64,000 nucleotides of DNA, from NCBI GenBank assembly GCA_965208125.1, contig OZ242320.1, forward strand, positions 1,216,001 through 1,280,000, given 5' to 3'. Every line of letters begins with the position of its first letter. The stretch's first letter is position 1. A model generated the notes under the pieces. It did no database searches. It had not been told where the DNA came from and saw only the letters and a program-made list of their open reading frames with translations. The position numbers and the translations under genes were made by a program. This DNA comes from Candidatus Latescibacterota bacterium (GTDB lineage Bacteria; Latescibacterota; UBA2968). Below, piece by piece: positions 14,865 through 55,440 of the stretch.

Positions 14865-14894
14865 TCATCAATAATGGGCCATGAGGAGATTGTT

Positions 14895-27020: not shown

Positions 27021-27068
27021 AAAAAGAAAACACCCCAGCATCTTTGTGCCGGGGCGTTTTGTGTGTCA
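27021..27068 (-). terminator. Shared terminator element, copy T1
   Basis: Minus strand AAAACGCCCCGGCACAAAGATGCTGGGGTGTTTTCTTTTT. Confidence 0.8.
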
Positions 27069-27725: not shown

Positions 27726-27780
27726 AAAAGAGAACGCCACAGCATCGTTGTGCCGGGGTGCTTTTGTGTGTCAGATAACC
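27726..27780 (-). terminator. Shared terminator element, copy T2
   Basis: aaaagagaacgccacagcatcgttgtgccggggtgcttttgtgtgtcag. Confidence 0.75.
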
Positions 27781-28961: not shown

Positions 28962-29035
28962 AAAAATAGAACGCCCCAGCATCGTTGTGCCGGGGCGTTC
29001 TCTCCAGGTGAATTCATCCTATATTCATGCTATAT
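28962..29035 (-). terminator. Shared terminator element, copy T3
   Basis: aaaaatagaacgccccagcatcgttgtgccggggcgttct; flank similar to T5. Confidence 0.8.
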
Positions 29036-34292: not shown

Positions 34293-34988
34293 CTATTTCC
34301 CGATAGGCAAGCCGATACCAACCTGAAGGGCAATAGACCGGTTCTTAACATCATCATTTTCTACTTTGCTAAACGATTGGACCCCCAAAGTGTACAGCAA
34401 TTCGACTAAGAATGTCATCCCTTCGGAAATCGCTATCTCAGTACCGATCCCTCCAGTAATGCCCAAGTCCACCGTCCTGGTCTTGACGAAGTCCCCACAA
34501 TCCACTGGTTTCCCTGTTGTTGACCCATCTGTACCCACGATTCCGCACTTGACATTGAACGCCACCGCCGGTCCAGCGAGCACATATATGGAAGTTGGGC
34601 CTCCGGGTGGGACGAGCGAGGCGATACCCAGGCCTGAAAATTCGATATAATCAAGGTTTGCACTGCCACTTAAATTATCAATGCCAAAAAAGTCCAAAAA
34701 GCCGTCTTCGACAACATCGGCTTGCCACCCTTTCTGCACATAGTTACCACTGAGTTGAAGGGCGAATCTATCCTGTATTGTGATAGTTGCAGAAGTACCG
34801 ACTTTGATGCCTGTACGCGCGCCCATGTCCAAGCCTTCTAGGGACGCGTCATCTCCGCCTATGGTCGCTCGACTCAAGCCTCCCCGAATAGCGATTGTTG
34901 TCTGCCCAAAAACAGGGATAGGATCGTGCAGGGCCGCCAAGGCTATTACACCCATGATAACGATGTAATGAAATGATAAGTGTTTCAT
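34293..34988 (-). CDS. Outer-membrane beta-barrel (PorT/OmpA-like porin family) protein
   Basis: Signal peptide, alternating beta strands, LDYIEF, C-terminal KNRSIALQVGIGL; AGGTGAGG RBS. Confidence 0.8.
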   Translation of the reverse strand: MKHLSFHYIVIMGVIALAALHDPIPVFGQTTIAIRGGLSRATIGGDDASLEGLDMGARTGIKVGTSATITIQDRFALQLSGNYVQKGWQADVVEDGFLDFFGIDNLSGSANLDYIEFSGLGIASLVPPGGPTSIYVLAGPAVAFNVKCGIVGTDGSTTGKPVDCGDFVKTRTVDLGITGGIGTEIAISEGMTFLVELLYTLGVQSFSKVENDDVKNRSIALQVGIGLPIGK

Positions 34989-35061
34989 ATCTATATACCT
35001 CACCTGTAAAAAAGATGATGCCAAAATGGTCTCTGATTGGTAGAATCGAAAAAAATGTAAC

Positions 35062-35213
35062 TTGATGTTGTGGTTGTGGAACTTTACATTTTGATACAGA
35101 GCGGGTTGCGGTTTGCAAGACCGTTTCCTCTCTGTATGTTGCGGCAGAAGGCCACAGGCAGCCAAACCGAGCGGCCTTCTGCCATTCCCGCAGACATCAT
35201 ACATGTTTGCGGT
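35062..35213 (+). ncRNA. Structured element B, copy 1 (promoter plus putative sRNA 35096-35213)
   Basis: TTGATG-N17-TACATT followed by two conserved hairpin domains; near-identical to the 36.1 and 44.4 kb copies. Confidence 0.6.
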
Positions 35214-35241
35214 ACAGATCTCTCTTTTTTCTTTCTACCTT

Positions 35242-35736
35242 CTATTCTGCCTTCTTTATCTTCTCTATTTTGATCTGTACGGGTTGTGTTGAAATAAATT
35301 TCACCGATGCATCGCCAGAAGGGACAATTTTAACGGGTATATCGACAGCACCTGTTTGTTGGCTCGTAAGAGTAACGCTGATTCTCTCTGGGTATAAATC
35401 ATATAATGATCCTGCCATGTAATCTACCATGAGACCCACACCGGACCCGAGAAGATCAAGAAGGACAACTCCAATGTCCACTTTTTTTCTGATTCTCACC
35501 TGACGTGTCTCGTATCCTTCTTTTGAAATTGTAACATTATAATTCTGATTACGTTCCAATTCTGCTTCTGCTGGTGTGGTATATGTCTCGCCTTCTATAT
35601 CAACGGTGCTTCCTGGTGGTGTCGATCTAATGCTAATAAGTTGAGTAGAGCCATTAAGAATCAATCCACATCCAGAAAAAGAAAACAAAGAGAAAGTACA
35701 CAGCAATGCTAATGATACGGACAGGCAATTTTTCAT
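35242..35736 (-). CDS. PEGA-domain lipoprotein
   Basis: Lipobox FSGC; S.PPG..V.I.G...TP...L......VTISKEGY PEGA pattern; AAGGAAGG RBS. Confidence 0.85.
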   Translation of the reverse strand: MKNCLSVSLALLCTFSLFSFSGCGLILNGSTQLISIRSTPPGSTVDIEGETYTTPAEAELERNQNYNVTISKEGYETRQVRIRKKVDIGVVLLDLLGSGVGLMVDYMAGSLYDLYPERISVTLTSQQTGAVDIPVKIVPSGDASVKFISTQPVQIKIEKIKKAE

Positions 35737-36048
35737 AACAACAATCCTTCCTTTTCTTAAAGGTCAAATACGTAACTAAATGTGAGTGATGTCTCATTGA
35801 TGGCGACTATAATCTATCACCCACATCAAATTCTTTTTTTGCACAAAACTAACACCGCGAAATTCTAAACTCAATGAGACGACATGCTTTCTGATCTTAT
35901 CCTCCTTTCAAAAGCAAATATTACTGATAGATTGAATTACCCTGCTCCGCATCTAGGTTAATACTTCTCGCCTAGTAACAGATCGGGCACAGACATAAGT
36001 TTTAAGCCTTCTCCTCCTTTCTCGTTGCATCAAACGGGAAAATGCAAC

Positions 36049-36210
36049 TTGCTTTTGTGATAGTGGCACTTTACATTGTGAACAGAGCGGGTTGCGGTTT
36101 GCAGAACCGTTTCCCCCTCTGTATGTTGCGGCAGAAGGCCACAGGCAGCCAAACCGAGCGGCCTTCTGCCATTCCCGCAGACATAATTACCTGTTTGCGG
36201 TTTTTTTTAT
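36049..36210 (+). ncRNA. Structured element B, copy 2 (promoter plus putative sRNA 36082-36210 with terminator)
   Basis: TTGCTT-N17-TACATT; 3' hairpin ccgcagaca...tgtttgcgg followed by T8. Confidence 0.65.
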
Positions 36211-36260
36211 AATAAGCGTTCAGCAGTCAGCAAAACAAGCTATTCGCTGATTTTCAGCAA

Positions 36261-36300
36261 TAAAAAAACCGCGTGTCCAGAACCAGATGACACGCGGTTG
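36261..36300 (-). terminator. Intrinsic terminator downstream of element A
   Basis: Minus strand AACCGCGTGTC-loop-GACACGCGGTT followed by a T-tract. Confidence 0.85.
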
Positions 36301-36319
36301 ATTATTGTGCTATAAATAA

Positions 36320-36544
36320 TACCGAATGCCATATCACCTATGGCATCCGGTTGCATTATAGAGCCGGTCAAATGCCACAGGCTGTTAGACTCTATCTATA
36401 GCCCAGATTGAGCTCGGCCCTTTCGGAAACCGAAACCATAGCATTTAACCGGCTGGAAGTTGCACAGTATATCCGGCCCCTCCAGCCGGTGCTATAAATA
36501 AAGCCTAACGGCCTTATATTACAACATAAAAGAATCGTTTGCAA
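36320..36544 (-). ncRNA. Structured element A, copy 1, with its promoter
   Basis: TTGCAA-N17-TAATAT (36544-36516); hairpin, three-way junction and terminator-like hairpin; homologous to 44581-44814. Confidence 0.62.
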
Positions 36545-36754
36545 GAAGAAATTGCTCATAAAATTTGCTGGCGCAGTCTGGTATAAAGCGGGCCAATCCA
36601 TAGATTGTACACCCCGCTTCAGTGTGGGGCAGGACCCAAAGTAAGACCACAATGTACATACACTCACAGGTACAGAGAGGTTTCAAATTTATTCATGCTG
36701 AGTCACCGAACAACACCAGTATCGCGTGATAAAGGAGCGTGGATTTGCGTTTTA

Positions 36755-36833
36755 ACGCGAAGCAACAGCACAAAAAGAGAACGCCCCAGCATCGTTGTGC
36801 CGGGGCGTTCTCTTTTTGTGTATCAGGTAAACC
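36755..36833 (-). terminator. Shared terminator element, copy T4 (longest stem)
   Basis: cacaaaaagagaacgccccagca-tcgttg-tgccggggcgttctctttttgtg. Confidence 0.85.
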
Positions 36834-36910
36834 AAAAAACGATTGTAAAAAAAGGCTTTTTCCAGACCCGTTCTCCGACCAGTTGCACCATTGCGCCTGT
36901 TCGTAACAAC

Positions 36911-37630
36911 TCAATGTACCAATTTGATGCCCCATTCAACACACCGCGTTTCGACTTCATCAAGCGGTGCCATGGTCACGATCACGCCATCGACTGTTTT
37001 ATCGGGGTGCAAAGTCCGCATCAACCCCACTTTATCGGCAAAGCGATCCACATCTTCCACCTCGCAAACAGACTTCACTTCAAACACCAGTAAAGTGCTG
37101 TTATAGACCAGAATATCGACTTCGTAGCGGCGCCCTGAAGGTCCAATCATGCCATCCTCATCTTCAAGAGGCTGTCGCAAACGCACATTTTCAGATACAA
37201 TATCGTCTCGCCCAAGAACCAATCTCATCGTGCCAGCAACAACATCCTCGAGTTTTCTGCCAGACCGCGTTTGGAAGCGTCCCACGATCATCTCAACCCA
37301 ATCTCTCAGATCGGAAAAACGCTGATCCATCTGGTCAAACCGTTCATCAACTTTCTCAAATCGCTCATCAACTTTCTCAAATCGCTCATCAACTTTCTCA
37401 AACCGTTCATTGACTTCCGACTGAAATGTATCCATGCCTGACCGAAATGTATCAAACTCGCCACGAAAATCGCGCAATTCAGAAAGGATTGCTGCGACTT
37501 CTTCCTTAGTAGCAAAAGTCCGCATAAAAGCCGTATAGACGCGCCGTTCCATCTCTGGATGGCGTGCAAGCAAAGCCGGCAACTGCTTCTCAAGCGTCTC
37601 TAATAATTCTTCATCTGTCAACAAGGCCAT
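36911..37630 (-). CDS. Coiled-coil + PD-(D/E)xK nuclease-fold protein (DUF3782-like)
   Basis: Heptad repeats ERFEKVD x3 (21-bp repeats at ~37344-37410); E..EVDI...VFEVKS motif. Confidence 0.75.
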   Translation of the reverse strand: MALLTDEELLETLEKQLPALLARHPEMERRVYTAFMRTFATKEEVAAILSELRDFRGEFDTFRSGMDTFQSEVNERFEKVDERFEKVDERFEKVDERFDQMDQRFSDLRDWVEMIVGRFQTRSGRKLEDVVAGTMRLVLGRDDIVSENVRLRQPLEDEDGMIGPSGRRYEVDILVYNSTLLVFEVKSVCEVEDVDRFADKVGLMRTLHPDKTVDGVIVTMAPLDEVETRCVEWGIKLVH

Positions 37631-37695
37631 CTCTCATTCCTCATTAGAATTTCCATAACGCAAGGCCAACTGTTCCAATGACCTTTATCAGATCA

Positions 37696-37727
37696 AAAGT
37701 AGCCGATTTCTATGGACCTGTCAACAC
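37696..37727 (-). promoter_or_regulatory. Sigma70 promoter, identical 32-bp copy 2
   Basis: Identical to 27530-27561. Confidence 0.8.
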
Positions 37728-37736
37728 TCCTCAATG

Positions 37737-37808
37737 AACTACGCCCCAGCATCGAAATGCCGGGGCGTTCTTATGTGTCAGGTAAACTCATCCTGAATTC
37801 ATACTATT
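37737..37808 (-). terminator. Shared terminator element, copy T5 (U-tract eroded)
   Basis: acgccccagcatcgaaatgccggggcgttc...caggtaaactcatcctgaattcatactat. Confidence 0.7.
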
Positions 37809-37884
37809 CGCCATAGGGATTTGAGTCAACGCCATCGTCCACCCAATCCGAAATCCAATATAGTCTCTGATCGCTCTGCGGTCA

Positions 37885-39897
37885 TCAAAACTGCACCGTA
37901 ACTCCTCTGCCTTGAAGGGCTGGAATATGCGTGTTGATTGATGCGTCACTCAGAGGATTATCCCGCACATCAACCCTGTCTCCACTACCCCATCCCGTAT
38001 TTGCTACCAATGGCGAAAGGTCCGTGATTGAGTTATTGCGAAGCCATAATGTTTCTATATTGGTCAAGTTAGACAGCGGCGAAATATCCACGATTGAGTT
38101 ATAGTTAAGAACCAGATATGTCAGATGGGTTAAATCTGACAGTGGTGACACATCCGAGATGGTGTTATTGTTAAGAATCAGACTTGTCAAACTGGTCAAA
38201 CCGGACAGCGGGGACACATCCGAGATGGTATTACTGTTAAGCACCAGACTTGTTAAACTGGTCAAACCGGACAGTCCAGATATGTCCGAGATGCTGTTGC
38301 TGTCAAGACGTAGCCTTGTCAGGCGGGTCAACTCTGACAGTGCTGACACGGCCGAAATGGAGTTGTTGTGAAGAGTCAGATACGTCAGACTGGTCAAGCC
38401 TGACAGTGGTGACACATCCGAGATGCTGTTGCTGGAAAGACTTAGACTGCTCAGACTGGTCAAGCCTGACAGTGGTGAAAGGTCTGTGATCGAGTTGTTG
38501 GAAAGCAATAGCCTTGTCAGAATGATTGCAAACTCCAGACCGGTCAAATCGCTAATGTTCGAGTTCGGTGCATCAAGGCGGGTTAGAGTTGACATATCGC
38601 TTCTGGTGATCGTCTCGCCGCTCGACTTATCCAAAGCGTCCTCAATGGCAACACGCAGATTCGTGTCTGGGATGCTCACAGGCGTTGGGTCGATAACGTT
38701 AAAAACCACCCTAACCCCTCTATCTTGAAGGGCTGGAATGTGTGTGTTGATTGATGTTGTACCCAGAGGATTATCCTTCACATTAACATCGTCACCACTG
38801 CCTAATCCCGTATTTGCCACCAATGGCGCGAGATCGGAGATAGAGTTGTTTTGAAGCCATAGAGTTTGCAGATTGGTCAAGCCTGACAGCGGTGTGAGGT
38901 CAGAAATTGAGTTGTTGATAAGAATCAGCCCTTGCAGATTGGTCAAGTTAGACAGCGGTGAAAGATCCGTAATTGAGTTGTTGACAAGCAACAGCCCTGT
39001 CAGATTGGTCGCAAACTCAAGCCCGGTCAAATCGCTAATATTCGCATTCACTGCGGCAAAGAGGGTTAAGGTTGCCATCTCATCTCTGGAAATCGGAGCA
39101 CCACTCGCCTTGTTCAGACTGTCCTCAACCACAGCGCGCAGATTCATATCTGGAATAGAAACCATCCCTTCATCGCCACCATCAGAAGGAGACACCGTTT
39201 GACCATATTTACCTATAAGAATCCTCAAATCGCCCGCTGCAATCACCCCATCCCTATCCAGATCGTATTTCGCAACATCATCAGCTCGCCGAGACCCATA
39301 CACGCTGATCAGAAGCAGAAGGTCGGATTTACCGACAACACCATCCCCATCAAAATCGGGGGAAGGTGCGACATTAAACCTGATCACCTCTGTTGTTGTA
39401 ATAACATCCTCCACAGGCCTCGCGTTCGTATCTCCAGCAAGCACAATCCTCTTAATGCCAATAGAAAACTCTCGCCCCGTTACATCCACTGCGGTAGTAA
39501 ACTCTGCCCGTGCTAAAAAACCAGACTCAGACAAAGTCGCAGGTGAACTTGCTAATGTTCCCAAGACTGTACCAGTCGCTTCATTTTGAAGTGTAATCAG
39601 AGATGCACTGCTCCTGGCTCCGACATAGGCCAAAACAGACGCATCAAAATCAAATTCAATTCGTACACCAAGCAACGGCGTGGTCACACCTTTTGCGAAA
39701 ACTTCAACCGCGATTTTTGTCCCCTGTCCAGACACTCTACCTGAAGTAACGCCATCATCTCTCTCATTACCTGCCCCTCCATCGGCAATCAAATCAAGCG
39801 ACAAAACCGCATTCGCATTGGGACCAGCAGTCGTTTCTCCTGTACATATCAACAACCCAAAAAGGGTAAAAAACAATAATCCTTTTCTCAAAAACAT
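37885..39897 (-). CDS. Secreted cohesin-like + dockerin + two internalin-type LRR modules
   Basis: Signal peptide; PDFDGDG/YDLDRDG pair; IPD.NLR cap; 22-aa L..L.L..N.ISD.SPLSGLT repeats. Confidence 0.9.
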   Translation of the reverse strand: MFLRKGLLFFTLFGLLICTGETTAGPNANAVLSLDLIADGGAGNERDDGVTSGRVSGQGTKIAVEVFAKGVTTPLLGVRIEFDFDASVLAYVGARSSASLITLQNEATGTVLGTLASSPATLSESGFLARAEFTTAVDVTGREFSIGIKRIVLAGDTNARPVEDVITTTEVIRFNVAPSPDFDGDGVVGKSDLLLLISVYGSRRADDVAKYDLDRDGVIAAGDLRILIGKYGQTVSPSDGGDEGMVSIPDMNLRAVVEDSLNKASGAPISRDEMATLTLFAAVNANISDLTGLEFATNLTGLLLVNNSITDLSPLSNLTNLQGLILINNSISDLTPLSGLTNLQTLWLQNNSISDLAPLVANTGLGSGDDVNVKDNPLGTTSINTHIPALQDRGVRVVFNVIDPTPVSIPDTNLRVAIEDALDKSSGETITRSDMSTLTRLDAPNSNISDLTGLEFAIILTRLLLSNNSITDLSPLSGLTSLSSLSLSSNSISDVSPLSGLTSLTYLTLHNNSISAVSALSELTRLTRLRLDSNSISDISGLSGLTSLTSLVLNSNTISDVSPLSGLTSLTSLILNNNTISDVSPLSDLTHLTYLVLNYNSIVDISPLSNLTNIETLWLRNNSITDLSPLVANTGWGSGDRVDVRDNPLSDASINTHIPALQGRGVTVQF

Positions 39898-39989
39898 TTA
39901 CAACTCTCCTCTCCTATGTAGTGATGTGGTTTACGCAGAACCTGCACCCGTTCTGCTTCTTGCCCTTTCGGGATCCGAACGCCATATAG

Positions 39990-40005
39990 TGCAAAAAGCG
40001 TGCCA
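39990..40005 (-). promoter_or_regulatory. Consensus sigma54 promoter of the LRR gene
   Basis: TGGCACGCTTTTTGCA on the minus strand, about 90 nt upstream of the ATG. Confidence 0.85.
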
Positions 40006-40341
40006 ATATGAGCGTTGTTATAGATCTATATTCGTAAAGCGTTGTTTTACAAAAAGAAAAAGAGCCAATCTAACTATATTATATCGTCGCAGAATAGTCG
40101 GATTGGCTCTTACACAAGACCCTATATCGTCTTAAAAGACGTAATAGGGTCTCAATAGTCCCGAGACCACAGTACATTCTTCATTATCATTTTTCGTTTG
40201 CAAGTGTGAGATGCAATGTATGAATTAGTTTTTTCCCATATCATAAGGTTCTCTATGACCAAACCACTTGATCCCACAGGCATCTAATGGCCGAGCGCAG
40301 GCTTGCATTTTGCGGTGTGTATATGTATCTTTGCACGCGAC

Positions 40342-40477
40342 AAAAACCTTCTGGATCGCGGCTCGACAGCACGCCCGATGACAGGCAAAAACCTCTGGAT
40401 TGCGGCTCGAAACCATGCCGCGATGACAGACGGGACGGCACAGGGGCCGTCCCCTACAACACCATACCGCAATGACA
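40342..40477. repeat. REP-like palindrome cluster
   Basis: Two ctggat(c/t)gcggctc...gatgac units plus gggacggcacaggggccgtcccctac. Confidence 0.8.
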
Positions 40478-40500
40478 ACTAAAACCAAAGGAAAAAAATA

Positions 40501-41697
40501 ATGTTTGAAACACTGACAATGGCACCTGCGGATCCCATTATAGGATTGACCGAAGCATTCAAAAATGACCCAAACCCCGACAAAATAAACCTCGGCGTTG
40601 GCGTGTACAAAGACGGCGACGGCAACACGCCGATATTTGCCTCTGTAAAAACAGCGGAAGAACGCCTTTTAACACACGAAGACACCAAAAATTATCTCGG
40701 CATAGAAGGCGACGAAGCGTATAACAAAGCCGTCCAAGAACTCCTCTGGGGAACAGATCACGAAATACTCACCAGTGGTCGCGCCGGAACAGCCCAGGCA
40801 CCGGGCGGTACTGGCGCATTGCGCATTGCCGGCGACTTTATTCATCAGCACTATCCCCATGCCCGCGTATGGCTGAGCGATCCCACCTGGGCAAACCACC
40901 CCAAAATTTTTGAATCTGCTGGCGTACCCACAGAAACCTACCGCTATTACAACCCCGCGTCTTTTGGCCTAGACTTTGACGCACTTATCCAGGACCTCGG
41001 GCAAATCCCCGCAGGCGATGTCGTCTTGCTACACGGATGTTGCCACAACCCCACCGGCGTCGATCCCTCCGCCGAACAATGGGCGCAAATAGCCGATATC
41101 ATCGCAGATCGCGGCATCATCCCACTCGTAGATTTTGCCTATCAGGGCCTGGGCAACGGCCTCGTCGAAGACGCAGTCGGACTCCTATCTCTCAGCCGGC
41201 CCGGCTGCGAACTCCTCGTCGCCAGTTCCTTCTCCAAAAACTTTGGCCTCTACCGCGAGCGCACGGGCGCATTGACCCTCGTCGGAAAAGACGCCACCGC
41301 CGTTGAAAAAGCGATGAGCCACATCAAAATCTGCATCCGCACAAATTATTCCAACCCGCCATCGCACGGCGCCCAGGCAGTCGCAACGGTTCTCAACGAC
41401 CCCGACTTGCGGGCACAATGGGACGGCGAAGTAAAAGCCATGCGCGACCGCATCAACAACATGCGCACCCTATTTGTGGATACCCTCGAAACAAAAGGCG
41501 TGCGGCGCGACTTTTCGTTTATCGCACACCAGAGGGGAATGTTCTCTTTCTCCGGATTGACTCCCGAGCAAGTAGAAGCATTGCGCGAGAAATTTTCAAT
41601 ATACATCGTCAATTCGGGACGGATTAACGTGGCGGGCATGACAAAGGACAACATCGGGCCATTGTGCGAAGCGATAGCGGAAGTGATGGACGAATAG
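40501..41697 (+). CDS. aspC: Aspartate/aromatic aminotransferase (class I)
   Basis: KINLGVGVY, GGTGAL, HGCCHNPTG, DFAYQG and SFSKNFGLYRER motifs. Confidence 0.95.
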   Translation: MFETLTMAPADPIIGLTEAFKNDPNPDKINLGVGVYKDGDGNTPIFASVKTAEERLLTHEDTKNYLGIEGDEAYNKAVQELLWGTDHEILTSGRAGTAQAPGGTGALRIAGDFIHQHYPHARVWLSDPTWANHPKIFESAGVPTETYRYYNPASFGLDFDALIQDLGQIPAGDVVLLHGCCHNPTGVDPSAEQWAQIADIIADRGIIPLVDFAYQGLGNGLVEDAVGLLSLSRPGCELLVASSFSKNFGLYRERTGALTLVGKDATAVEKAMSHIKICIRTNYSNPPSHGAQAVATVLNDPDLRAQWDGEVKAMRDRINNMRTLFVDTLETKGVRRDFSFIAHQRGMFSFSGLTPEQVEALREKFSIYIVNSGRINVAGMTKDNIGPLCEAIAEVMDE

Positions 41698-41850
41698 ACG
41701 GAGCGGTAACTGGTCGTTTCTCAGGCCAGTTCATCAACGGAGCGGGGTAACGCCAGACTGTACCATCGCTGTTGAGCGATGAAGGTTATACGACGGCGTG
41801 TGTGGGCAATTTAATCCTGTAAAGCGTGCAAAAAATTTCCCTTTTCAGTA

Positions 41851-44313
41851 CTATTGGTTCACAATAATCTGGTTGTGTTCGTTGTCACCAATGACCTCCC
41901 ACGGGGTTGGCGCATCCACTGTGCCTATGATGTTAATCAGCACCTTGCCAGAGGTTTTTACCCGGATTCCGACAGTATTCGCGCGAATAAAACCCGTGAC
42001 AATAATCGTGATGTCGCCAGTCTCACTCTCGGCACTGATGCCGATTCCGTGGCGGTTGCTGGCGATAATGGTGCCGTCGATGACAATCTCTATATCGCCG
42101 CTACCCGCCGGGCGCGAGGGGTCGTAGAGTACATTTTTACTTTCGGCTAAAATCCCGATAGCTCTGGGACCAGACACGACGATATCACCGCTGTTGTCGA
42201 TGACGATATCACCAGCTGAATACACGCGGGTTTCCCCGTCAACGGTGATGTCCCTGCCATACGCTTGGGCATATATCCCGTGAGAGCGGGCTCGGCTCGT
42301 CTCAATGCGACCCGAGTTGGCGATTTCGATCTTGCCGCCGAGGCCGTGATGTGCCCTCAGCCCGCTTGCATCCTCTCCGCGTGTTGTGATCTGACCGGTA
42401 TTCGCCGCGTAGGTCAGCCGAGTTTCTCCGATGGGATCAGGGGGCAACAATCTGAATTTTTCTCGGCTGCGCTGGTCGAGAAGATCGTGGAACGGCGTGA
42501 TATCAAACCCAGGAATCCAGAAGGCGAAAGCCAAAAGGCCCGAAGACCTCAAGCCAGTAGTTGAAACAGTTCCTTCATTGATGCCATAAGCTTGACCAGA
42601 CCTCTTCGCTGCGACCGCAATTCCAGGGCTGCGGCGCCCCGTTGTCTCGATGATGCCGGTGCGGTAGTTTCGCGCGTATGCAGCACCTGCGGCATTGGTT
42701 TTCGGCCGCGTTATGATTTCCTCTTGTATGTGGTGGCAACCCTCATTGTCAAAATAGGCAGCACAGGTCTCGGAATGAATACCATCGCTGAGTCTTCCCC
42801 TTGTCGTTACGCTGCCGGTATTATGCGTCTGCGTTGTGCCCCACAAGGTCTGCGCTGCCACTCCGCGGCTACTAACGCCCTCTACATCGATGGTTCCGTA
42901 GTTGATTGAGCGGGCAAGCTGGCCGCCGGTCTCGACGAATAGGCCATCTTGTCGGCCTTCGTCCCCAGTGATGAGAATACTGCCGCTCGACAGGTTGATG
43001 GACTCGGCAACATGTGTGTCGTCGTGTGGTGCGGCACTCTTGTGGATTTGGCTCGCGATGCCCCGTAGCGTTTTATCCGTCGAGTTATCGATTGTTACCG
43101 TACCGTAATTAGCTGTGTATACATTTCCACTGCCGCGCGAATATGTCCGCAGTCCTATACCCCATTCGAGTATTTGGATCATGCCCTTATTGACCAGCAT
43201 TAAATCGTCGGTATTTCCATACGTTATAATATTTATAGCAAACGCATTGGTCGCGTTGATCCCCGCTGTTTCTGTGAATGTGGCCGCGTATGCCTGCTTT
43301 TTTTCGTCTGAACTGTTGATGAAATTGAGGGCTGAGGTACCGGAGGGAACAGTGATCGTGCCTGCATCGTAATAGACATGGGTGGCGATGTCGGGATCAG
43401 AGGCTGTCGCTGGATTTAGCGGCGTTACCCTGTCGCCTTCGTAGCTATCGGTTATTGGGAGGGTAATTGTGTAATCCCTTACCGGGTATGGCGAAAAAGC
43501 TGGAGAAGGGTTGGACAGCGTGAGATGATCAAAGCGTACATTAACCCCTCTCTCAGATAGGGCGGGAATGTGCGTATTGAGCGACATGGCACTCAGCGGA
43601 TTATTATTCAGTAAAACCCAGTCGTCCTTGTCCAATCCCGTATTAGCTACCAATGGCGCGATATCCGAGATTGTATTGCCACGAAGATATAGATGTGTCA
43701 GGCCGGTCAGGTTGGCAACTGGCGCAATATCCGAGATCGCATTGCCATCGAGATTCAGCCATCTCAGGCTGGTCAACTCATCTATCGGTGCGATGGTAGA
43801 TATGTCGTTGCTGTTTACTTTTCGCCCCTCTATCCAATCATAGCCAAAATTTAGCCGTGTCAGATTCGTTGCATACTCGAGACCTGTCAAATTGCGAATG
43901 GCTTTGTTAGGTGCGTCAAGGCGCGTCAATTTTGACATATCGTCCGGGGTAATAGGTGCATCGCTTGTTTTGCCGAGAATTTTGGCAATGACCGCACGCA
44001 GGTTCTCATCTGGAATGTCAACAGTCGTTGTGCCGCCACTGCCTGACGGCGGAAATGTCTTGCCCCAATTGGAAATAAGGAGCCTTAAGTCCAATTCATC
44101 AACGATCTTATCACTTTTCAGATCAAACTTCGCATCCCAATTTGGTCCACCTGCTCGCGTTCCCCAATTGGAAATAAGGAGCCTTAAGTCCAATTCATCA
44201 ACGATCCCATCGTCGTTAAAGTCAGGAGAAGGCGTAGGGGTCTGAGATGCAAGAGACAGCGGATAGGCCAACACACATAAACAAATCATCAAAAACGCAA
44301 CACGAAACTTCAT
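41851..44313 (-). CDS. Secreted dockerin + LRR + autotransporter-passenger-like beta-helix protein
   Basis: Signal peptide, duplicated IVDELDLRLLISNWG, LRR module, N.G.I.T.G..S.GI.A repeats; no C-terminal beta-barrel. Confidence 0.82.
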   Translation of the reverse strand: MKFRVAFLMICLCVLAYPLSLASQTPTPSPDFNDDGIVDELDLRLLISNWGTRAGGPNWDAKFDLKSDKIVDELDLRLLISNWGKTFPPSGSGGTTTVDIPDENLRAVIAKILGKTSDAPITPDDMSKLTRLDAPNKAIRNLTGLEYATNLTRLNFGYDWIEGRKVNSNDISTIAPIDELTSLRWLNLDGNAISDIAPVANLTGLTHLYLRGNTISDIAPLVANTGLDKDDWVLLNNNPLSAMSLNTHIPALSERGVNVRFDHLTLSNPSPAFSPYPVRDYTITLPITDSYEGDRVTPLNPATASDPDIATHVYYDAGTITVPSGTSALNFINSSDEKKQAYAATFTETAGINATNAFAINIITYGNTDDLMLVNKGMIQILEWGIGLRTYSRGSGNVYTANYGTVTIDNSTDKTLRGIASQIHKSAAPHDDTHVAESINLSSGSILITGDEGRQDGLFVETGGQLARSINYGTIDVEGVSSRGVAAQTLWGTTQTHNTGSVTTRGRLSDGIHSETCAAYFDNEGCHHIQEEIITRPKTNAAGAAYARNYRTGIIETTGRRSPGIAVAAKRSGQAYGINEGTVSTTGLRSSGLLAFAFWIPGFDITPFHDLLDQRSREKFRLLPPDPIGETRLTYAANTGQITTRGEDASGLRAHHGLGGKIEIANSGRIETSRARSHGIYAQAYGRDITVDGETRVYSAGDIVIDNSGDIVVSGPRAIGILAESKNVLYDPSRPAGSGDIEIVIDGTIIASNRHGIGISAESETGDITIIVTGFIRANTVGIRVKTSGKVLINIIGTVDAPTPWEVIGDNEHNQIIVNQ
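44063..44206. repeat. Perfect 45-bp direct repeat (99-bp period) forming the two dockerin halves
   Basis: ccccaattggaaataaggagccttaagtccaattcatcaacgatc at 44063 and 44162. Confidence 0.9.
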
Positions 44314-44361
44314 GATCGCCCCTCCCTTTCTCGTCGCATTCCTCAACCGGAAAAATGCAAC

Positions 44362-44522
44362 TTGATTTTGTGGTGGTGGAACTTTACATTGTGCATAGAG
44401 CGGGTTGCGGTTTGCAAGACCGTTCCCCTCTCTGTATGTTGCGGCAGAAGGCCACAGGTGGCCAAACCGAGCGGCCTTCTGTCATTCCCGCAAACATAAC
44501 ACACGTTTGCAGGTTTTTATTT
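44362..44522 (+). ncRNA. Structured element B, copy 3
   Basis: TTGATT-N17-TACATT; same hairpins; gcaaac...gtttgc followed by a T-tract. Confidence 0.62.
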
Positions 44523-44580
44523 ACGACAATCGTTCTGTCAGGACTTTCTCATCTTCTCGATTTACAGTCTGGAATCAGAC

Positions 44581-44814
44581 AAAAAAACACCGAATGCCAT
44601 ATCACCTATGACATCCGGTTTCTCTATTGAATATGCCGATTAAATGCCACAGGCTACCTTCTTAATCTATAGCCTAGATTAAGTTCGGTTCCTTTAGTCC
44701 CCGAAGCCATAGCATTTAACCGGCTGGAAGTTGCACAGTATATCCGGCTCCCTCCAGCCGGTAGGCTATATTTAAGAAGGCACCTTATGATAAACATTAA
44801 TAAACTTTACGCAA
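44581..44814 (-). ncRNA. Structured element A, copy 2, ending in an intrinsic terminator
   Basis: TTGCGT-N16-TATCAT; compensatory changes relative to copy 1; hairpin followed by GTTTTTTT. Confidence 0.62.
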
Positions 44815-44847
44815 TAAAAAACGCATAAGCCTTTCCAAGGAGAAATC

Positions 44848-45621
44848 ATGACACTCAAAGACCGCGTGGCAATCGTCACTGGCGCAAGCTCTGGCATAGG
44901 GCGGGGCATAGCACTGGCACTGGCACGGGAAGGCGCGTGTGTAGCCGTGGCCGATATACAGGAAGCACCCAAACAGGGCATATATCACGACACCGACTTA
45001 ACCACTTCTACGGTAGAGGAAATAGAAAAACGCGGTAGAAAAGGAATCTTTGTACAGACCGACGTATCGGATGACGAAGCGGTACGCAACCTGATCGAAC
45101 GGACAGTCTCCGAATTTGGCAAACTGGACATCCTGGTAAACAACGCCGGCATCACAATACCCGGCGGCATTGAAGAAACAACCATCGCCGACTACGACAC
45201 CGTAATGGGCGTAAACCTCCGGGCACTATATGTAGCCAGCAAACTCGCCATGCCACACCTGAAAAAACCCTCCGGCAGAATCATCCACATCGCATCTGTA
45301 CAATCATTTGGCGGGGGTGGTGGACCTGCGTATGCCGCATCAAAAGCCGGCGTCGTCAACCTCACGCGAGACACCGCCCTGGAACTGGCCCCCTTTGGCG
45401 CAACCGTCAATGCAATATGCCCGGGCTACATCGAAACGCCCATACAGGACTATCTCACACCGCAGGACATTGAAGACTGCCGGGTAAAAACCCCCCTGCC
45501 GCGCCTGGGCTTGCCATCGGACATCGGCAACGCCGCGGTATTCTTCGCATCAGACGCCGCCGCCTGGATCACTGGCACAGCCCTACCTGTAGATGGCGGA
45601 TGGATGGCGTCTATTTTTTAA
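44848..45621 (+). CDS. SDR family NAD(P)-dependent oxidoreductase
   Basis: TGASSGIG, NNAG and YAASK motifs. Confidence 0.95.
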   Translation: MTLKDRVAIVTGASSGIGRGIALALAREGACVAVADIQEAPKQGIYHDTDLTTSTVEEIEKRGRKGIFVQTDVSDDEAVRNLIERTVSEFGKLDILVNNAGITIPGGIEETTIADYDTVMGVNLRALYVASKLAMPHLKKPSGRIIHIASVQSFGGGGGPAYAASKAGVVNLTRDTALELAPFGATVNAICPGYIETPIQDYLTPQDIEDCRVKTPLPRLGLPSDIGNAAVFFASDAAAWITGTALPVDGGWMASIF

Positions 45622-51992: not shown

Positions 51993-52769
51993 ATGCTCAC
52001 AACAATCCTCATCGCCATTGGCCTTGTGCTGGGTATCCCCCTCGCGATTCTGGTACTCTTCATATTCTTGCCAATCCGCGCAGGTGCAACGGGATACTAC
52101 CGCGAAAATGACTATAACATATCCGGTTTCGCGCGCGGGTGTGCCGGACTATGCGGTATTATCTGCGACATCGACAAAAAGGGAATACAATTGCGCGTCG
52201 TTATCGGACGCTGGACCGCGTGGCGACCCAGAGAAAAACCGCCATCATCAGCCCCAACAACAGAACCCGAAAGAGATACCGCCACCGAACCAAAACGGGA
52301 TAGACCCAAAAAATCATATCCGACAACAAAACCCTCCTATTGGTCGCGTTTGCAAACCCTGCACGCAAAAACAAAACAATACCTGGACTACGCCGCGGAT
52401 GTGCGTCCCATTCTGACGCGATTTATGAAGCGCCTATCAAAAACAATAGCATTTCAACACGCAGAATTGAATCTGGAACTGGGAACAGACGACCCCGCTT
52501 TCACCGGGCGTCTATTTGGATATATCGAAGCGTTCAAGCGCATCTTTGGCAAACGCATCCACATCTCACTCACCCCTGATTTTTTGCAACCGCGCTTTGC
52601 CGGATCGGGAACCTTGAAACTCTCCATTTATCTTCACCGTTTGATATTCGCCGCACTCGCCCTAACTATACGCGGCGGACTCTGGCGCGCAAAAATCTGG
52701 TGGACAAAACGCAAAAACAGGCGCAAAGTTAGGACGGCACAGGGGCCGTCCCCTACGATGATATTGTGA
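51993..52769 (+). CDS. DUF2953-domain (YtfI-like) membrane protein
   Basis: N-terminal TM, LGTDDPAFTG.LFG and TPDF motifs; upstream of a ytfJ homologue. Confidence 0.75.
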   Translation: MLTTILIAIGLVLGIPLAILVLFIFLPIRAGATGYYRENDYNISGFARGCAGLCGIICDIDKKGIQLRVVIGRWTAWRPREKPPSSAPTTEPERDTATEPKRDRPKKSYPTTKPSYWSRLQTLHAKTKQYLDYAADVRPILTRFMKRLSKTIAFQHAELNLELGTDDPAFTGRLFGYIEAFKRIFGKRIHISLTPDFLQPRFAGSGTLKLSIYLHRLIFAALALTIRGGLWRAKIWWTKRKNRRKVRTAQGPSPTMIL

Positions 52770-52838
52770 TTTTTGTAGGGGCGACCCCCTGTGGTCGCCC
52801 GCTGACTGCTGGGACGGCACAGGGGCCGTCCCCTACGG
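52731..52838. repeat. GTAG-type REP/REPIN cluster (3 units)
   Basis: ggacggcacaggggccgtcccctac twice and gtaggggcgaccccctgtggtcgccc. Confidence 0.85.
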
Positions 52839-53265: not shown

Positions 53266-55359
53266 ATGCTCTCAAACTTAAACCAGCCCTTGCGAACACT
53301 GCCGGGCATTGGGCCAAAGCGCGAAAAAGTATTGGAAAACGCTGGCATCGCCACCGTGGGCGATCTGCTATTGTATTTGCCCTATCGGTACATAGATCGT
53401 TCTACCGAAGTCGGAATCGCACACCTGCCGCTGGAGCGAGAAGTCACCGCAGTCGGTGAAATCGTAAGCATGCAGACAATCCCCGGCAAGCGTCGGCGAT
53501 TCGTCATGACAGTCGAAGACCAGACCGGATCGGTCGCCTGTACGTGGTTCGGAGGCATTCAATACCTCAAAAACGCATATCGCGCGGGCGACATCGTGGC
53601 ACTCGGGGGAAAATTGACGCGATTCGGGCGCACCCTGCAAATAGTACACCCCGAAATAGAAGTTCTCGCAAACGAAGACGACGACAATCAGCGGCTACAT
53701 ACCGGACGCATCATCCCCCTGTATTCGACCACATCAAAAATGAAAGCAGACCGCCTCACAGCCCGCGCACTCCGCCGTCTCCTATTCGCCGCGCTACGAG
53801 CTATTGGAGATCAGATCGAAGACCCATTGGACAAAAACATACGCAAACGCTGTGGCCTGATGCGCCTGCGAGACGCAATTGAAAAAATCCATTTCCCAGA
53901 CACTACAACGGACATAGACACCGCGCGGCAACGCCTATCATTTGACGAAATCTTCTACATCCAGCTCTATCTGGGACAAGCAAAAAAGCTACGCCAGCGC
54001 ACACCCGGACGCGTACTGACATCCAGCGGTCCCCTGACGCAACAACTCGTGGCGAATCTACCCTTCAAACTAACGCATGCACAAACGCACGCCATTGTAG
54101 AAATCGGCCATGACTTACAACGCCCCGTAGCCATGCACCGCCTGTTGCAGGGCGACGTGGGATCCGGCAAAACCCTGGTCGCCCTCCACGCCATGTTGTG
54201 TGCCGCAGACAGCGGCGCGCAGGCCGCCCTGATGGCCCCCACAGAGATCCTGGCCGAGCAACACGCCCATACCATTCGGGAACTCATCGCACCACTGGGC
54301 TTAGACATAGCACTGGTAACAGGACGCATGCCAAAGGCTCAACGCACCAGAGTGCTGGACGGATTGCGTTCTGGAGAAATAAAAATAGCAGTCGGCACAC
54401 ATGCCCTGTTGCAAAACGACATCGCATTTGCCGACATCGCACTCATCGTCGTCGATGAACAACATCGTTTTGGCGTGGTACAGCGCGCCATGCTGCGTGA
54501 AAAAGGCAACACGCCCCATCTTCTGGTCATGACCGCCACCCCCATACCCAGATCCCTATCGCTGACCCTGTATGGCGATCTGGATGTCACCATCATCGAC
54601 GCCCTGCCGCCCGGTCGCATCCCTGTACGCACGGGATGGCGTTATGCACAGGACCGCGGCCGCGCACTGCAATTTCTGCGTAGCGAACTGCAACAGGGAC
54701 ATCAGGCATATATCGTCTATCCACTCGTATCCGAATCCGAAAAAAGCGACCTGCAAGCCGCCACCGCCGCCTTTGAAGACCTGCAACAAGGCGCACTCTC
54801 CAACTTCCAATTGGGCTTGCTTCACGGCCGCCTAAAACGCGACGAAAAAGAAACCACAATGTCTGCCTTCAGACGCGGCGACCTGGATGCGCTGGTCACG
54901 ACAACAGTCATAGAAGTCGGCGTCGATGTTCCCAATGCCACAGTCATGATGGTCGAACACGCCGAGCGTTTTGGACTATCGCAACTACACCAATTGCGCG
55001 GGCGCGTGGGCCGCGGTCAACATCAATCCTACTGCATCTTAATCGCAGATCCCCAGGAAGGATTATCGGATGACGCGCGTGAACGCCTCGACGCCATGGC
55101 GCGAACAACGGACGGATTCGAAATTTCAGAAGCCGACTTGTGCATCCGGGGACCCGGACATATTTTTGGCACACAACAAGCCGGCTTCCCCAAATTTCAC
55201 TTTGCCGACCTCGCCCGCGATGGCGCCTTAATCACCGCTGCACGCCGAGAAGCACAGACACTCCTGGACCGCAACCCCAATTTGACCGCGCACACTGTTT
55301 TAAGACGAGAATTAGACGCAACCGCGCTCCACGACAGGCAAATTGTGGAAGCGGGGTGA
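53266..55359 (+). CDS. recG: ATP-dependent DNA helicase RecG
   Basis: LQGDVGSGKT, DEQHRFG, MTATPIPR and QLHQLRGRVGRG motifs. Confidence 0.97.
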   Translation: MLSNLNQPLRTLPGIGPKREKVLENAGIATVGDLLLYLPYRYIDRSTEVGIAHLPLEREVTAVGEIVSMQTIPGKRRRFVMTVEDQTGSVACTWFGGIQYLKNAYRAGDIVALGGKLTRFGRTLQIVHPEIEVLANEDDDNQRLHTGRIIPLYSTTSKMKADRLTARALRRLLFAALRAIGDQIEDPLDKNIRKRCGLMRLRDAIEKIHFPDTTTDIDTARQRLSFDEIFYIQLYLGQAKKLRQRTPGRVLTSSGPLTQQLVANLPFKLTHAQTHAIVEIGHDLQRPVAMHRLLQGDVGSGKTLVALHAMLCAADSGAQAALMAPTEILAEQHAHTIRELIAPLGLDIALVTGRMPKAQRTRVLDGLRSGEIKIAVGTHALLQNDIAFADIALIVVDEQHRFGVVQRAMLREKGNTPHLLVMTATPIPRSLSLTLYGDLDVTIIDALPPGRIPVRTGWRYAQDRGRALQFLRSELQQGHQAYIVYPLVSESEKSDLQAATAAFEDLQQGALSNFQLGLLHGRLKRDEKETTMSAFRRGDLDALVTTTVIEVGVDVPNATVMMVEHAERFGLSQLHQLRGRVGRGQHQSYCILIADPQEGLSDDARERLDAMARTTDGFEISEADLCIRGPGHIFGTQQAGFPKFHFADLARDGALITAARREAQTLLDRNPNLTAHTVLRRELDATALHDRQIVEAG

Positions 55360-55364
55360 CTGAT

Positions 55365-55440
55365 CGGGACGGCACAGGGGCCGTCCCCTACGGCAGATTG
55401 TTACATGTGTTGTAGGGGCGACCCCCTGTGGTCGCCCGCT
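55365..55440. repeat. GTAG-type REPIN (2 units)
   Basis: Same two REP units as at 52.7 kb. Confidence 0.85.

Follow-up and report, generated by a model that had tools for sequence, protein, structure and literature searches.

In enterobacteria, OmrA and OmrB are made from duplicated small RNA (sRNA) genes that have their own promoters and Rho-independent terminators, and they regulate outer-membrane proteins. The Latescibacterota, which are placed in the FCB superphylum as is Bacteroides, are uncultured and we know of nothing that has been established about their RNA-based regulation. Here we describe Element B, a non-coding unit of about 125 nt that is repeated in a 64,000-nt stretch of the genome of a Candidatus Latescibacterota bacterium (contig OZ242320.1, positions 1,216,001 to 1,280,000 of the forward strand), together with Element A, a second non-coding unit that faces it. 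This whole stretch is called the window and positions are counted from its first letter. Like the Omr genes, Element B appears to be a set of multicopy sRNA genes with a promoter and a Rho-independent terminator of their own; it differs in that it is found in another phylum and has no relation to the Omr RNAs in sequence or structure, there being no Rfam match.

OmrA and OmrB are also named as paralogous sRNAs in a paper on FopS/GibS of Bacteroides thetaiotaomicron, and that paper describes 14 paralogous sRNAs which have their own promoters and are mostly intergenic (PMC11697453). According to the same text, FopS acts in trans on translation-initiation regions and represses the translation of mRNAs for SusC-like outer-membrane and surface proteins, and the RNAs are about 65-70 nt long, have a 5' single-stranded seed, are transcribed from sigma-ABfr promoters and have RbpB as partner protein (PMC11697453). 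Element B is likewise multicopy and stand-alone and has its own promoter, whereas its RNA would be about 125 nt long with the 5' end paired in its first stem (P1) and its promoter is sigma-70-like; the two families are set apart here by these published features and not by sequence. By analogy, the FopS family is the best working model for how Element B may act.

The Element B family, its signals and its fold

The reading that we favour, with moderate confidence, is that Element B is a multicopy family of stand-alone genes, each for a non-coding sRNA of about 125 nt, that is specific to one clade of Latescibacterota and whose product is a trans-acting regulator. The core of this reading was put forward in the initial annotation, which was made by a model from the letters of the DNA, and the proposed non-coding plus-strand sRNA with its own promoter and terminator and no known family holds in the computational tests that were applied to the sequence. 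In the window, a repeat search found units of about 180 bp on the plus strand at 35043-35221, 36030-36208 and 44343-44521, which form one repeat family (D7), and in the alignment of the three copies the transcribed part of about 125 nt has a mean column identity of 91%. These are the three non-coding copies that had been placed at 35096, 36082 and 44395, and reading the sequence ahead of each confirmed that TTGnnn-N17-TACATT precedes all three on the plus strand. The predicted RNA consists of P1, an interrupted stem of about 16 bp, a single-stranded linker of 8 nt, P2, a G+C-rich stem of 11 bp with a conserved loop of about 19 nt, and a 3' hairpin. The signals and RNA bodies of the window copies are as follows, with bit scores from the covariance models R1 and R2.

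35062-35090, plus strand: promoter-like site of copy 1, TTGATG at 35062-35067, spacer of 17 nt, TACATT at 35085-35090
36049-36077, plus strand: promoter-like site of copy 2, TTGCTT at 36049-36054, spacer of 17 nt, TACATT at 36072-36077
44362-44390, plus strand: promoter-like site of copy 3, TTGATT at 44362-44367, spacer of 17 nt, TACATT at 44385-44390
35096-35212, plus strand: RNA body of copy 1, P1 at about 35096-35135, P2 at 35143-35183, 3' hairpin at 35188-35212; R1 149.7 bits, R2 140.4 bits
36083-36208, plus strand: RNA body of copy 2, intrinsic terminator with its stem at 36175-36200 and T8 at 36201-36208; R1 154 bits
44396-44522, plus strand: RNA body of copy 3, terminator hairpin at about 44487-44513, tail TTTTTATTT; R1 148.4 bits

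The terminator of copy 2, with its T8, was called by the terminator scanner, and the U tract is clear in copies 2 and 3, as annotated; the body of copy 1 adjoins the 3' end of a convergent PEGA lipoprotein gene and there is no U tract after its hairpin. The invariant 16-mer of hairpin 2 occurs 5 times in the window at up to 3 mismatches compared to 0.38 expected, and none of 100 shuffles got to 5. When the window was searched with R2 with the filters off, the three Element B copies scored 140-147 bits and the runner-up 22 bits. One candidate for a degenerate copy, at 40019-40157 on the minus strand, was rejected because its 22 bits came from structure alone and it has no sequence similarity; it is an AT-rich region of three hairpins in the leader of a leucine-rich repeat (LRR)/dockerin gene at 37885-39897 and, unlike Element B, it is co-directional with the gene.

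Element B is not confined to this genome. The genome scan used an exact invariant 17-mer as key, which is unspecific in G+C-rich genomes, and it gave at least 118 loci, 112 of those listed being chance matches. R1, which was built from the three window copies, sorted the listed loci into at least six true homologues with 53.5-151 bits and the rest, every one of which scored 16.5 bits or less. Among the matches listed, the homologues lie in five other genomes, all of them metagenome-assembled genomes of Latescibacterota, and all six loci are distinct from the window's own copies. The covariance model and the search of relatives, which the initial annotation had proposed, brought out homologues in Latescibacterota only, among the matches listed. 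The numbers of copies per genome are lower bounds because the key is an exact match and only the matches listed were sorted.

L023: contig OZ244847.1, 151 bits
L073: contig OZ241986.1, 118 bits
L113: contig OX638317.1, 112 bits
L002: contig JAJEHL010000008.1, 106 bits
L087: contig OX638317.1, 77 bits, on the same chromosome as L113 and 5.1 kb apart from it
L050: contig OZ242311.1, 53.5 bits

When the nine sequences were aligned with their flanks, the -35 (C)TTG, the -10 TA[C/A]ATT and the 17-nt spacing were found to be kept in eight of the nine, and in L002, L087 and L113 the promoter is kept although the sequence further upstream is unrelated. A canonical hairpin with a U tract ends six of the nine copies.

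The plus strands of copies 1, 2 and 3 fold with z-scores of -6.94, -7.55 and -5.11, respectively, and for each copy none of 200 shuffles folded equally well. All three fold alike into the CAGAG..CTCTG domain, the GGCAGAAGGCC..GGCCTTCTGCC domain and the 3' hairpin, exactly the elements that had been claimed for them. The invariant unpaired parts are the linker UAUGUUGC and the P2 loop ACAGGC.GCCAA.CCGA. In the model-based alignment of the nine sequences, standard pairs make up 93.1% of the pair cells compared to 46-50% when the partners are slid by 1-3 columns. There are five two-sided pair changes. Four of them are in the terminator stem, where for example GACA/UGUU becomes GGCA/UGCC in L002 and L113; the fifth is seen in L050, in the inner helix of P1, where C-G becomes U-A and the adjoining G.U becomes A-U. 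Cells with G.U outnumber those with A.C by 33 to 11 overall and by 23 to 2 in P1 alone, and therefore the plus strand is favoured as the RNA strand, in a comparison whose structure itself came from plus-strand folds. Coding by Element B was ruled out, because one-base indels in copy 1 (in P1) and in L073 and L002 (in the P2 loop) shift every long reading frame and no open reading frame (ORF) is common to all nine copies. A C-rich anti-Shine-Dalgarno motif, CCCCUCUCU, was considered in P1 and dismissed, since it is fully paired there and varies among the copies.

No known family accounts for Element B. The whole window has no match in Rfam 15 at the gathering scores, which bears out the statement of the initial annotation that no riboswitch or housekeeping RNA could be recognised, and at E<=10 nothing in 35000-36300 overlaps the sRNA body of copies 1 and 2. 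A below-threshold match to snoU83D spans 35012-35064 and reaches no further into copy 1 than the first bases of its -35 hexamer, and c4-2, from the E<=10 search around copies 1-2 and Element A, was set aside as sub-threshold noise at 21.5 bits against a threshold of 41. Searches of the full-text literature for small RNAs of Latescibacteria or Latescibacterota turned up no paper. Genes for sRNAs that carry a promoter and end in an intrinsic terminator are familiar, and Element B is of this kind, but it is a new family and a candidate for a new entry in Rfam; what is unusual is that it is paired, in a conserved and convergent arrangement, with a second structured RNA.

Several results weigh against the sRNA reading. 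The minus strand folds almost equally well, with z-scores of -5.8, -6.7 and -5.0 for copies 1, 2 and 3, respectively. Covariation is thin and the nine sequences are close relatives: shuffles reached the number of covarying pairs in 26 of 500 trials and the covariation score in 9 of 500, so that the control is only moderately exceeded. P2 has no two-sided change, and it was unable to show covariation because its 5' arm, like the linker, was part of the 17-nt search key and thereby fixed. The best-conserved stretch, GCGGGTTGCGGTTTGCA, sits within a stem, an unusual place for a seed. The promoter sites in the window are weak, with 8 of 12 positions of the sigma-70 consensus by our own count, and the consensus promoter scanner did not call them because its threshold is 9 matching positions; the case for these promoters is their conservation and not the strength of the match. 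Three copies are without the canonical terminator: copy 1 keeps just the hairpin, the terminator of L087 is lost and L050 has neither terminator nor promoter. Finally, exact complements of at least 10 nt in the window are at the chance level (19 compared to about 15 expected by our own estimate), and in a duplex scan with four accessible segments of Element B the minima were within 0.5 to 3 kcal/mol of those of shuffled segments; this target search covered the 64-kb window and its outcome says little either way.

Taken together, Element B is probably a regulatory small RNA and, as we infer, it most likely acts in trans. In the mechanism that we envisage, transcription would start from a sigma-70-type promoter (TTGnTT, 17 nt, TA[C/A]ATT), the body would fold co-transcriptionally into the stable P1 and P2 and the Rho-independent terminator would end the transcript. 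The linker UAUGUUGC and the P2 loop could then pair with mRNAs or with another RNA, in the way of paralogous sRNAs that tune envelope and secreted proteins, and the presence of multiple copies might provide dosage or differently wired promoters. Element B also gives a handle on the transcription signals of Latescibacterota, which look sigma-70-like rather than of the Bacteroidota type.

Gene context, the terminator and the divergent side

In all eight loci that could be read (L113, with a flank of 254 nt and no clear ORF, is unreadable), the strand opposite to Element B carries the gene upstream of it; the downstream unit is convergent with Element B in all nine, and a co-directional downstream gene is found in none of the nine. 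Divergent upstream and convergent downstream neighbours mean that Element B is a stand-alone gene and neither a 5' leader nor an ordinary riboswitch or attenuator of a downstream gene. The upstream neighbours are given below, with secreted status judged by eye from the N-termini.

34293-34988, minus strand: divergent gene of copy 1, outer-membrane protein (OMP) beta-barrel, Pfam OMP_b-brl_2 at 5.8e-11, hydrophobic N-terminus, better start at 34988 (MKHLSFHYIVIMGVIALAAL...)
35242-35736, minus strand: PEGA-domain lipoprotein gene, Pfam PEGA at 2.4e-08, convergent with copy 1 and the nearest real divergent gene of copy 2
41851-44313, minus strand: divergent gene of copy 3, dockerin/LRR protein, Pfam LRR_4 and Dockerin_1, start at 44313 (MKFRVAFLMICLCVLAYPLSLA...), signal-peptide-like N-terminus
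L023: divergent gene with a lipoprotein-like N-terminus
L073: divergent gene with a lipoprotein-like N-terminus
L002: divergent gene for an ankyrin-repeat protein
L087: divergent gene with a short N-terminus, apparently cytoplasmic
L050: divergent gene for a small membrane protein

It had been claimed that every copy lies upstream of a minus-strand gene for a secreted or outer-membrane protein. The opposite strand is right for all eight readable loci, but only five of the eight genes look secreted, the exceptions being L002, L087 and L050, and the tie to secreted-protein genes is a tendency and not a rule. The surface and secreted repeat proteins that dominate the region (LRR, dockerin, OMP and lipoproteins) have a candidate regulator in Element B. 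On the downstream side, Element A is the convergent unit at six loci; at the other three it is the PEGA gene (copy 1), a transposase-like ORF (L073) and the C-terminus of a regulator (L050). The transposase-like ORF occupies 727-1215 of L073 on the minus strand, where those six loci have Element A.

The fixed orientation also bears on the explanation that Element B is a selfish or neutral intergenic repeat, of the kind of a miniature inverted-repeat transposable element (MITE) or a repetitive extragenic palindromic (REP) sequence, with fortuitous hairpins and no RNA function. Element B is multicopy and only intergenic, its copies within one genome are near-identical, L087 and L050 look like decaying copies, and other hairpin repeat families (D16/D17 and D20, described below) are present in the window. 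A repeat of this sort, however, would not be expected to keep one orientation to its neighbours, divergent in eight of eight loci and convergent in nine of nine, nor to keep its promoter hexamers and their spacing while the flanks diverge, and the terminator stem and P1 of L050 carry compensated changes. The initial annotation had named a match to a MITE as a result that would speak against its proposal, and none was found: at copies 2 and 3 (35980-36600 and 44290-44850) neither Element B nor the unit of Elements B and A is flanked by terminal inverted repeats of at least 12 nt, only internal hairpins being seen there, and the plasmid and phage collections contain no match to Element B. We regard a selfish or neutral repeat as very unlikely.

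A different role for the 3' end follows from the suggestion, also made in the initial annotation, that the last hairpin takes part in mutually exclusive folds. Antisense transcripts that are controlled by a riboswitch or an attenuator exist, and Element B resembles them in that a convergent unit lies opposite its terminator and an alternative helix can be drawn; it differs in that it has no known aptamer and no covariation in the alternative helix, and its strong U tracts suggest that termination is the default. In this explanation the terminator would be conditional, either riboswitch-like or an attenuator that responds to an RNA or a protein: the linker UGUUGCGG would pair with the 5' arm of the terminator as an antiterminator, and the read-through would be antisense to the convergent unit, which is Element A in six loci and the PEGA gene at copy 1. 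Of the eight copies that keep the region, seven can form the alternative helix, with 7-9 of its 9 pairs; read-through would run against a convergent unit in all nine copies, and copy 1 has a hairpin with no U tract. It is true, then, that ATGTTGCGG can pair with the 5' arm of the last hairpin on paper, but the compensatory changes support the terminator helix and none supports the alternative, which was unable to covary in this set of sequences because its 5' partner is invariant and part of the search key. Changes in the 3' partner are either compensated in the terminator stem or, in L023, break both helices, the minimum-free-energy fold is always the terminator form, and the similarity between the linker and the 3' arm of the terminator is gone in L002 and L113. 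Moreover, no known aptamer was found in Rfam and none of the nine loci has a downstream gene on the same strand that could be regulated. A conditional terminator is the least probable of the explanations weighed here, and we give it hardly any weight compared to a stand-alone sRNA gene that terminates by default.

The divergent side of Element B is itself conserved in some of the loci. In copies 2 and 3, L023 and L073 the conserved block extends about 90 nt to the left, up to and including a GAGAAAGGAGG ribosome-binding site. In copy 3 the gene starts directly at this site, whereas in copy 2, L023 and L073 only a remnant follows it and a second ribosome-binding site stands before the real gene; copy 2 is 343 nt from the PEGA lipoprotein gene, with a conserved degenerate leader between them. 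The features of this side are as follows.

35737-36030, minus strand: degenerate leader at copy 2, with a first ribosome-binding site, a remnant of 12 codons and a second site, the conserved TTTTGAAGGGAGG
L023 215-500, minus strand: degenerate leader of the same make-up
L073 403-500, minus strand: degenerate leader of the same make-up
36024-36048 (copy 3 equivalent 44333-44361), minus strand: inverted repeat GTTGCAT..ATGCAAC, between the sRNA -35 and the divergent Shine-Dalgarno sequence

The degenerate leader at copy 2 looks like a duplicated segment of promoter and untranslated region (UTR) that stands before another gene's own leader. The inverted repeat would either form a hairpin in the 5' UTR of the minus-strand RNA or serve as an operator. 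In the alignment it carries substitutions in copy 3 and L073, two events only, and its pairing survives them only as G.U on the minus strand, which suggests that the divergent mRNA starts within the sRNA promoter. A candidate minus-strand promoter, [T/C]TGCAA in the P1 loop followed after 18-19 nt by CACAAT, AATAAT, GATAAT or CATAAT, is good in seven of the nine copies; its -10, which overlaps the -10 of the plus strand, is a poor TCAAAA at copy 1 and is absent in L050. It is plausible that the start sites of the divergent RNA and of the sRNA are about 15 bp apart with overlapping -10 elements, and if this is right the two RNAs do not overlap and their promoters would compete. The sRNA promoter would then stand back to back with the likely promoter of the divergent gene, overlapping it, and the firing of one would exclude the other. 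The initial annotation had concluded that Element B is antisense to any long leader of the divergent gene; this is unlikely, as the divergent leader seems to begin inside the sRNA promoter.

These features could also mean that what is selected is the DNA, as a cis-acting cassette of bidirectional promoter, 5' UTR and Shine-Dalgarno sequence, and that transcription of Element B competes or insulates while its RNA has no function. The leftward block up to GAGAAAGGAGG, the candidate minus-strand hexamers and the G.U changes in the leader inverted repeat, which are specific to the minus strand, are all consistent with it. L002, L113 and L087, however, keep the promoter or terminator signals of Element B next to an unrelated upstream region, and therefore the conserved unit is Element B itself. 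Nor would a cassette call for a structured body of 125 nt whose terminator stem is kept by compensated changes. In four of the nine copies the minus-strand -35 has the weaker form CTGCAA, and the minus-strand promoter was deduced by us and not called by the scanner. We consider a cassette of functionless RNA distinctly unlikely and retain the sRNA gene as the preferred reading.

Element A, the convergent unit

Element A is a second conserved non-coding unit, of about 250 nt, which is convergent with Element B and lies 50-100 nt from its terminator in six of the nine loci. In the window it is found only beside copies 2 and 3.

36262-36544, minus strand: Element A by copy 2, TTGCAA at 36544-36539, spacer of 17 nt, TAATAT at 36521-36516, two tandem terminator hairpins with T7 at about 36262
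44575-44814, minus strand: Element A by copy 3, without the second terminator hairpin
L023 788-1100, minus strand: Element A
L002 170-479, plus strand: Element A
L113 and L087: partial Element A

Its promoter is good, with TTGCAA, 17 nt and TAATAT and a TG ahead of the TAATAT. The body of about 250 nt folds at -113 kcal/mol and its terminator was called by the scanner, both in the unit beside copy 2. From the alignment and the fold, the long helix that closes the 5' and 3' ends varies in sequence among the copies and keeps its complementarity, and the inner hairpins are conserved. There is no Pfam match for the overlapping ORF and no credible Rfam match at E<=10. Among the four full copies the ORFs that start with ATG vary (13/18, 15/19, 19/23 and 17/36 codons), and by eye none looks hydrophobic; a coding role was rejected, as these small ORFs differ in length and end point between the copies. 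A stretch at 40280-40345 on the minus strand (..GCAAAGATACATA..AAAATGCAAGCC..GCTCGG..CATTA..), upstream of the leader of the LRR gene, resembles one at about 1100-1190 of L023 (minus strand), upstream of the Element A promoter; this may be another dispersed repeat.

A possible link between the two RNAs is an invariant tract of Element A, CCUGUGGCAUUU, the first 8 nt of which are complementary to the invariant GCCACAGG on top of P2 of Element B; in L002 and L113 the complement is 11 nt long. In the par locus of pAD1, RNA I and RNA II form a type I toxin-antitoxin system of convergent RNAs that interact through short repeats. Elements B and A are like them in that they face each other across their terminators and in that GCCACAGG on the same DNA strand in both makes the RNAs complementary. 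They differ in that Element A has no conserved hydrophobic toxin ORF, the two terminators are separate and not shared, and the complementarity is statistically insecure.

The two could form a module in which Element B acts on the convergent Element A or the reverse, as sponge and sRNA or as an RNA switch, with the P2 loop GCCACAGG(CUG) pairing with the CCUGUGGC tract and competing with the intramolecular helix of Element A. This agrees with the convergent arrangement in six of the nine loci, which come from four genomes, and with the fact that both Element A units in the window stand beside Element B. The longest Watson-Crick complement of every cognate pair is the same site, 8-11 nt long, and it lies within the most conserved block of each RNA; the Element A tract can also pair internally with AAAUGCUAUGG, so that a displacement is possible. 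Against this, 1, 3, 27, 27, 68 and 84 of the 300 shuffles made for each of the six pairs reached the complement, the partners show no covariation and the positions beside the 8-nt core are mismatched in window copies 2 and 3, L023 and L087. The predicted accessibility of the site in Element A is low (0.01-0.24), cofolding placed the contacts elsewhere, weak at 4-7 kcal/mol and inconsistent, and copy 1, L073 and L050 have no adjoining Element A. The full-length duplex prediction for the two RNAs is uninformative as it ignores intramolecular structure. Since shuffles match the complement, its flanks do not covary and the cofold disagrees, the pairing is a lead and not a finding, and a two-RNA module is in our estimate unlikely, although Elements B and A do make a testable case of linked non-coding RNA genes.

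A stronger form of the same idea, to which we give little credence, is that the two elements are a dedicated two-RNA device confined to Latescibacterota. The P2 loop would invade CCUGUGGC and displace the AAAUGCUAUGG:CCUGUGGCAUUU helix, or Element A would sequester Element B; the device would have been inserted time and again next to genes for secreted and surface proteins, and a bidirectional promoter would make transcription of the sRNA and of the neighbouring gene mutually exclusive. If true, it would be a modular copy-and-paste RNA cassette of a kind that is undescribed in any phylum.

Other repeats and genes in the window

Two further hairpin repeat families are found in the window. The first (D16/D17) has the form ..CGCCCCAGCATCGTTGTGCCGGGGCG.. 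between runs of A and T and occurs in five copies, which are probably bidirectional terminators reused between genes; the second (D20) is a G+C-rich, REP-like intergenic palindrome, GGGACGGCACAGGGGCCGTCCCCTAC, in four copies.

D16/D17: 27022-27054, 27726-27758, 28963-28995, 36773-36805 and 37733-37765
D20: 40421-40457, 52720-52756, 52800-52836 and 55355-55391

An ORF of 2086 aa at 14874-21134 on the plus strand is built of five tandem repeats of about 885 nt with 85-90% identity (D1-D5), and its product is most likely a giant repetitive surface protein. Near it are genes for WD40/PKD, LRR/dockerin and leishmanolysin-like proteins, and many of the proteins encoded there are eukaryote-like repeat proteins.

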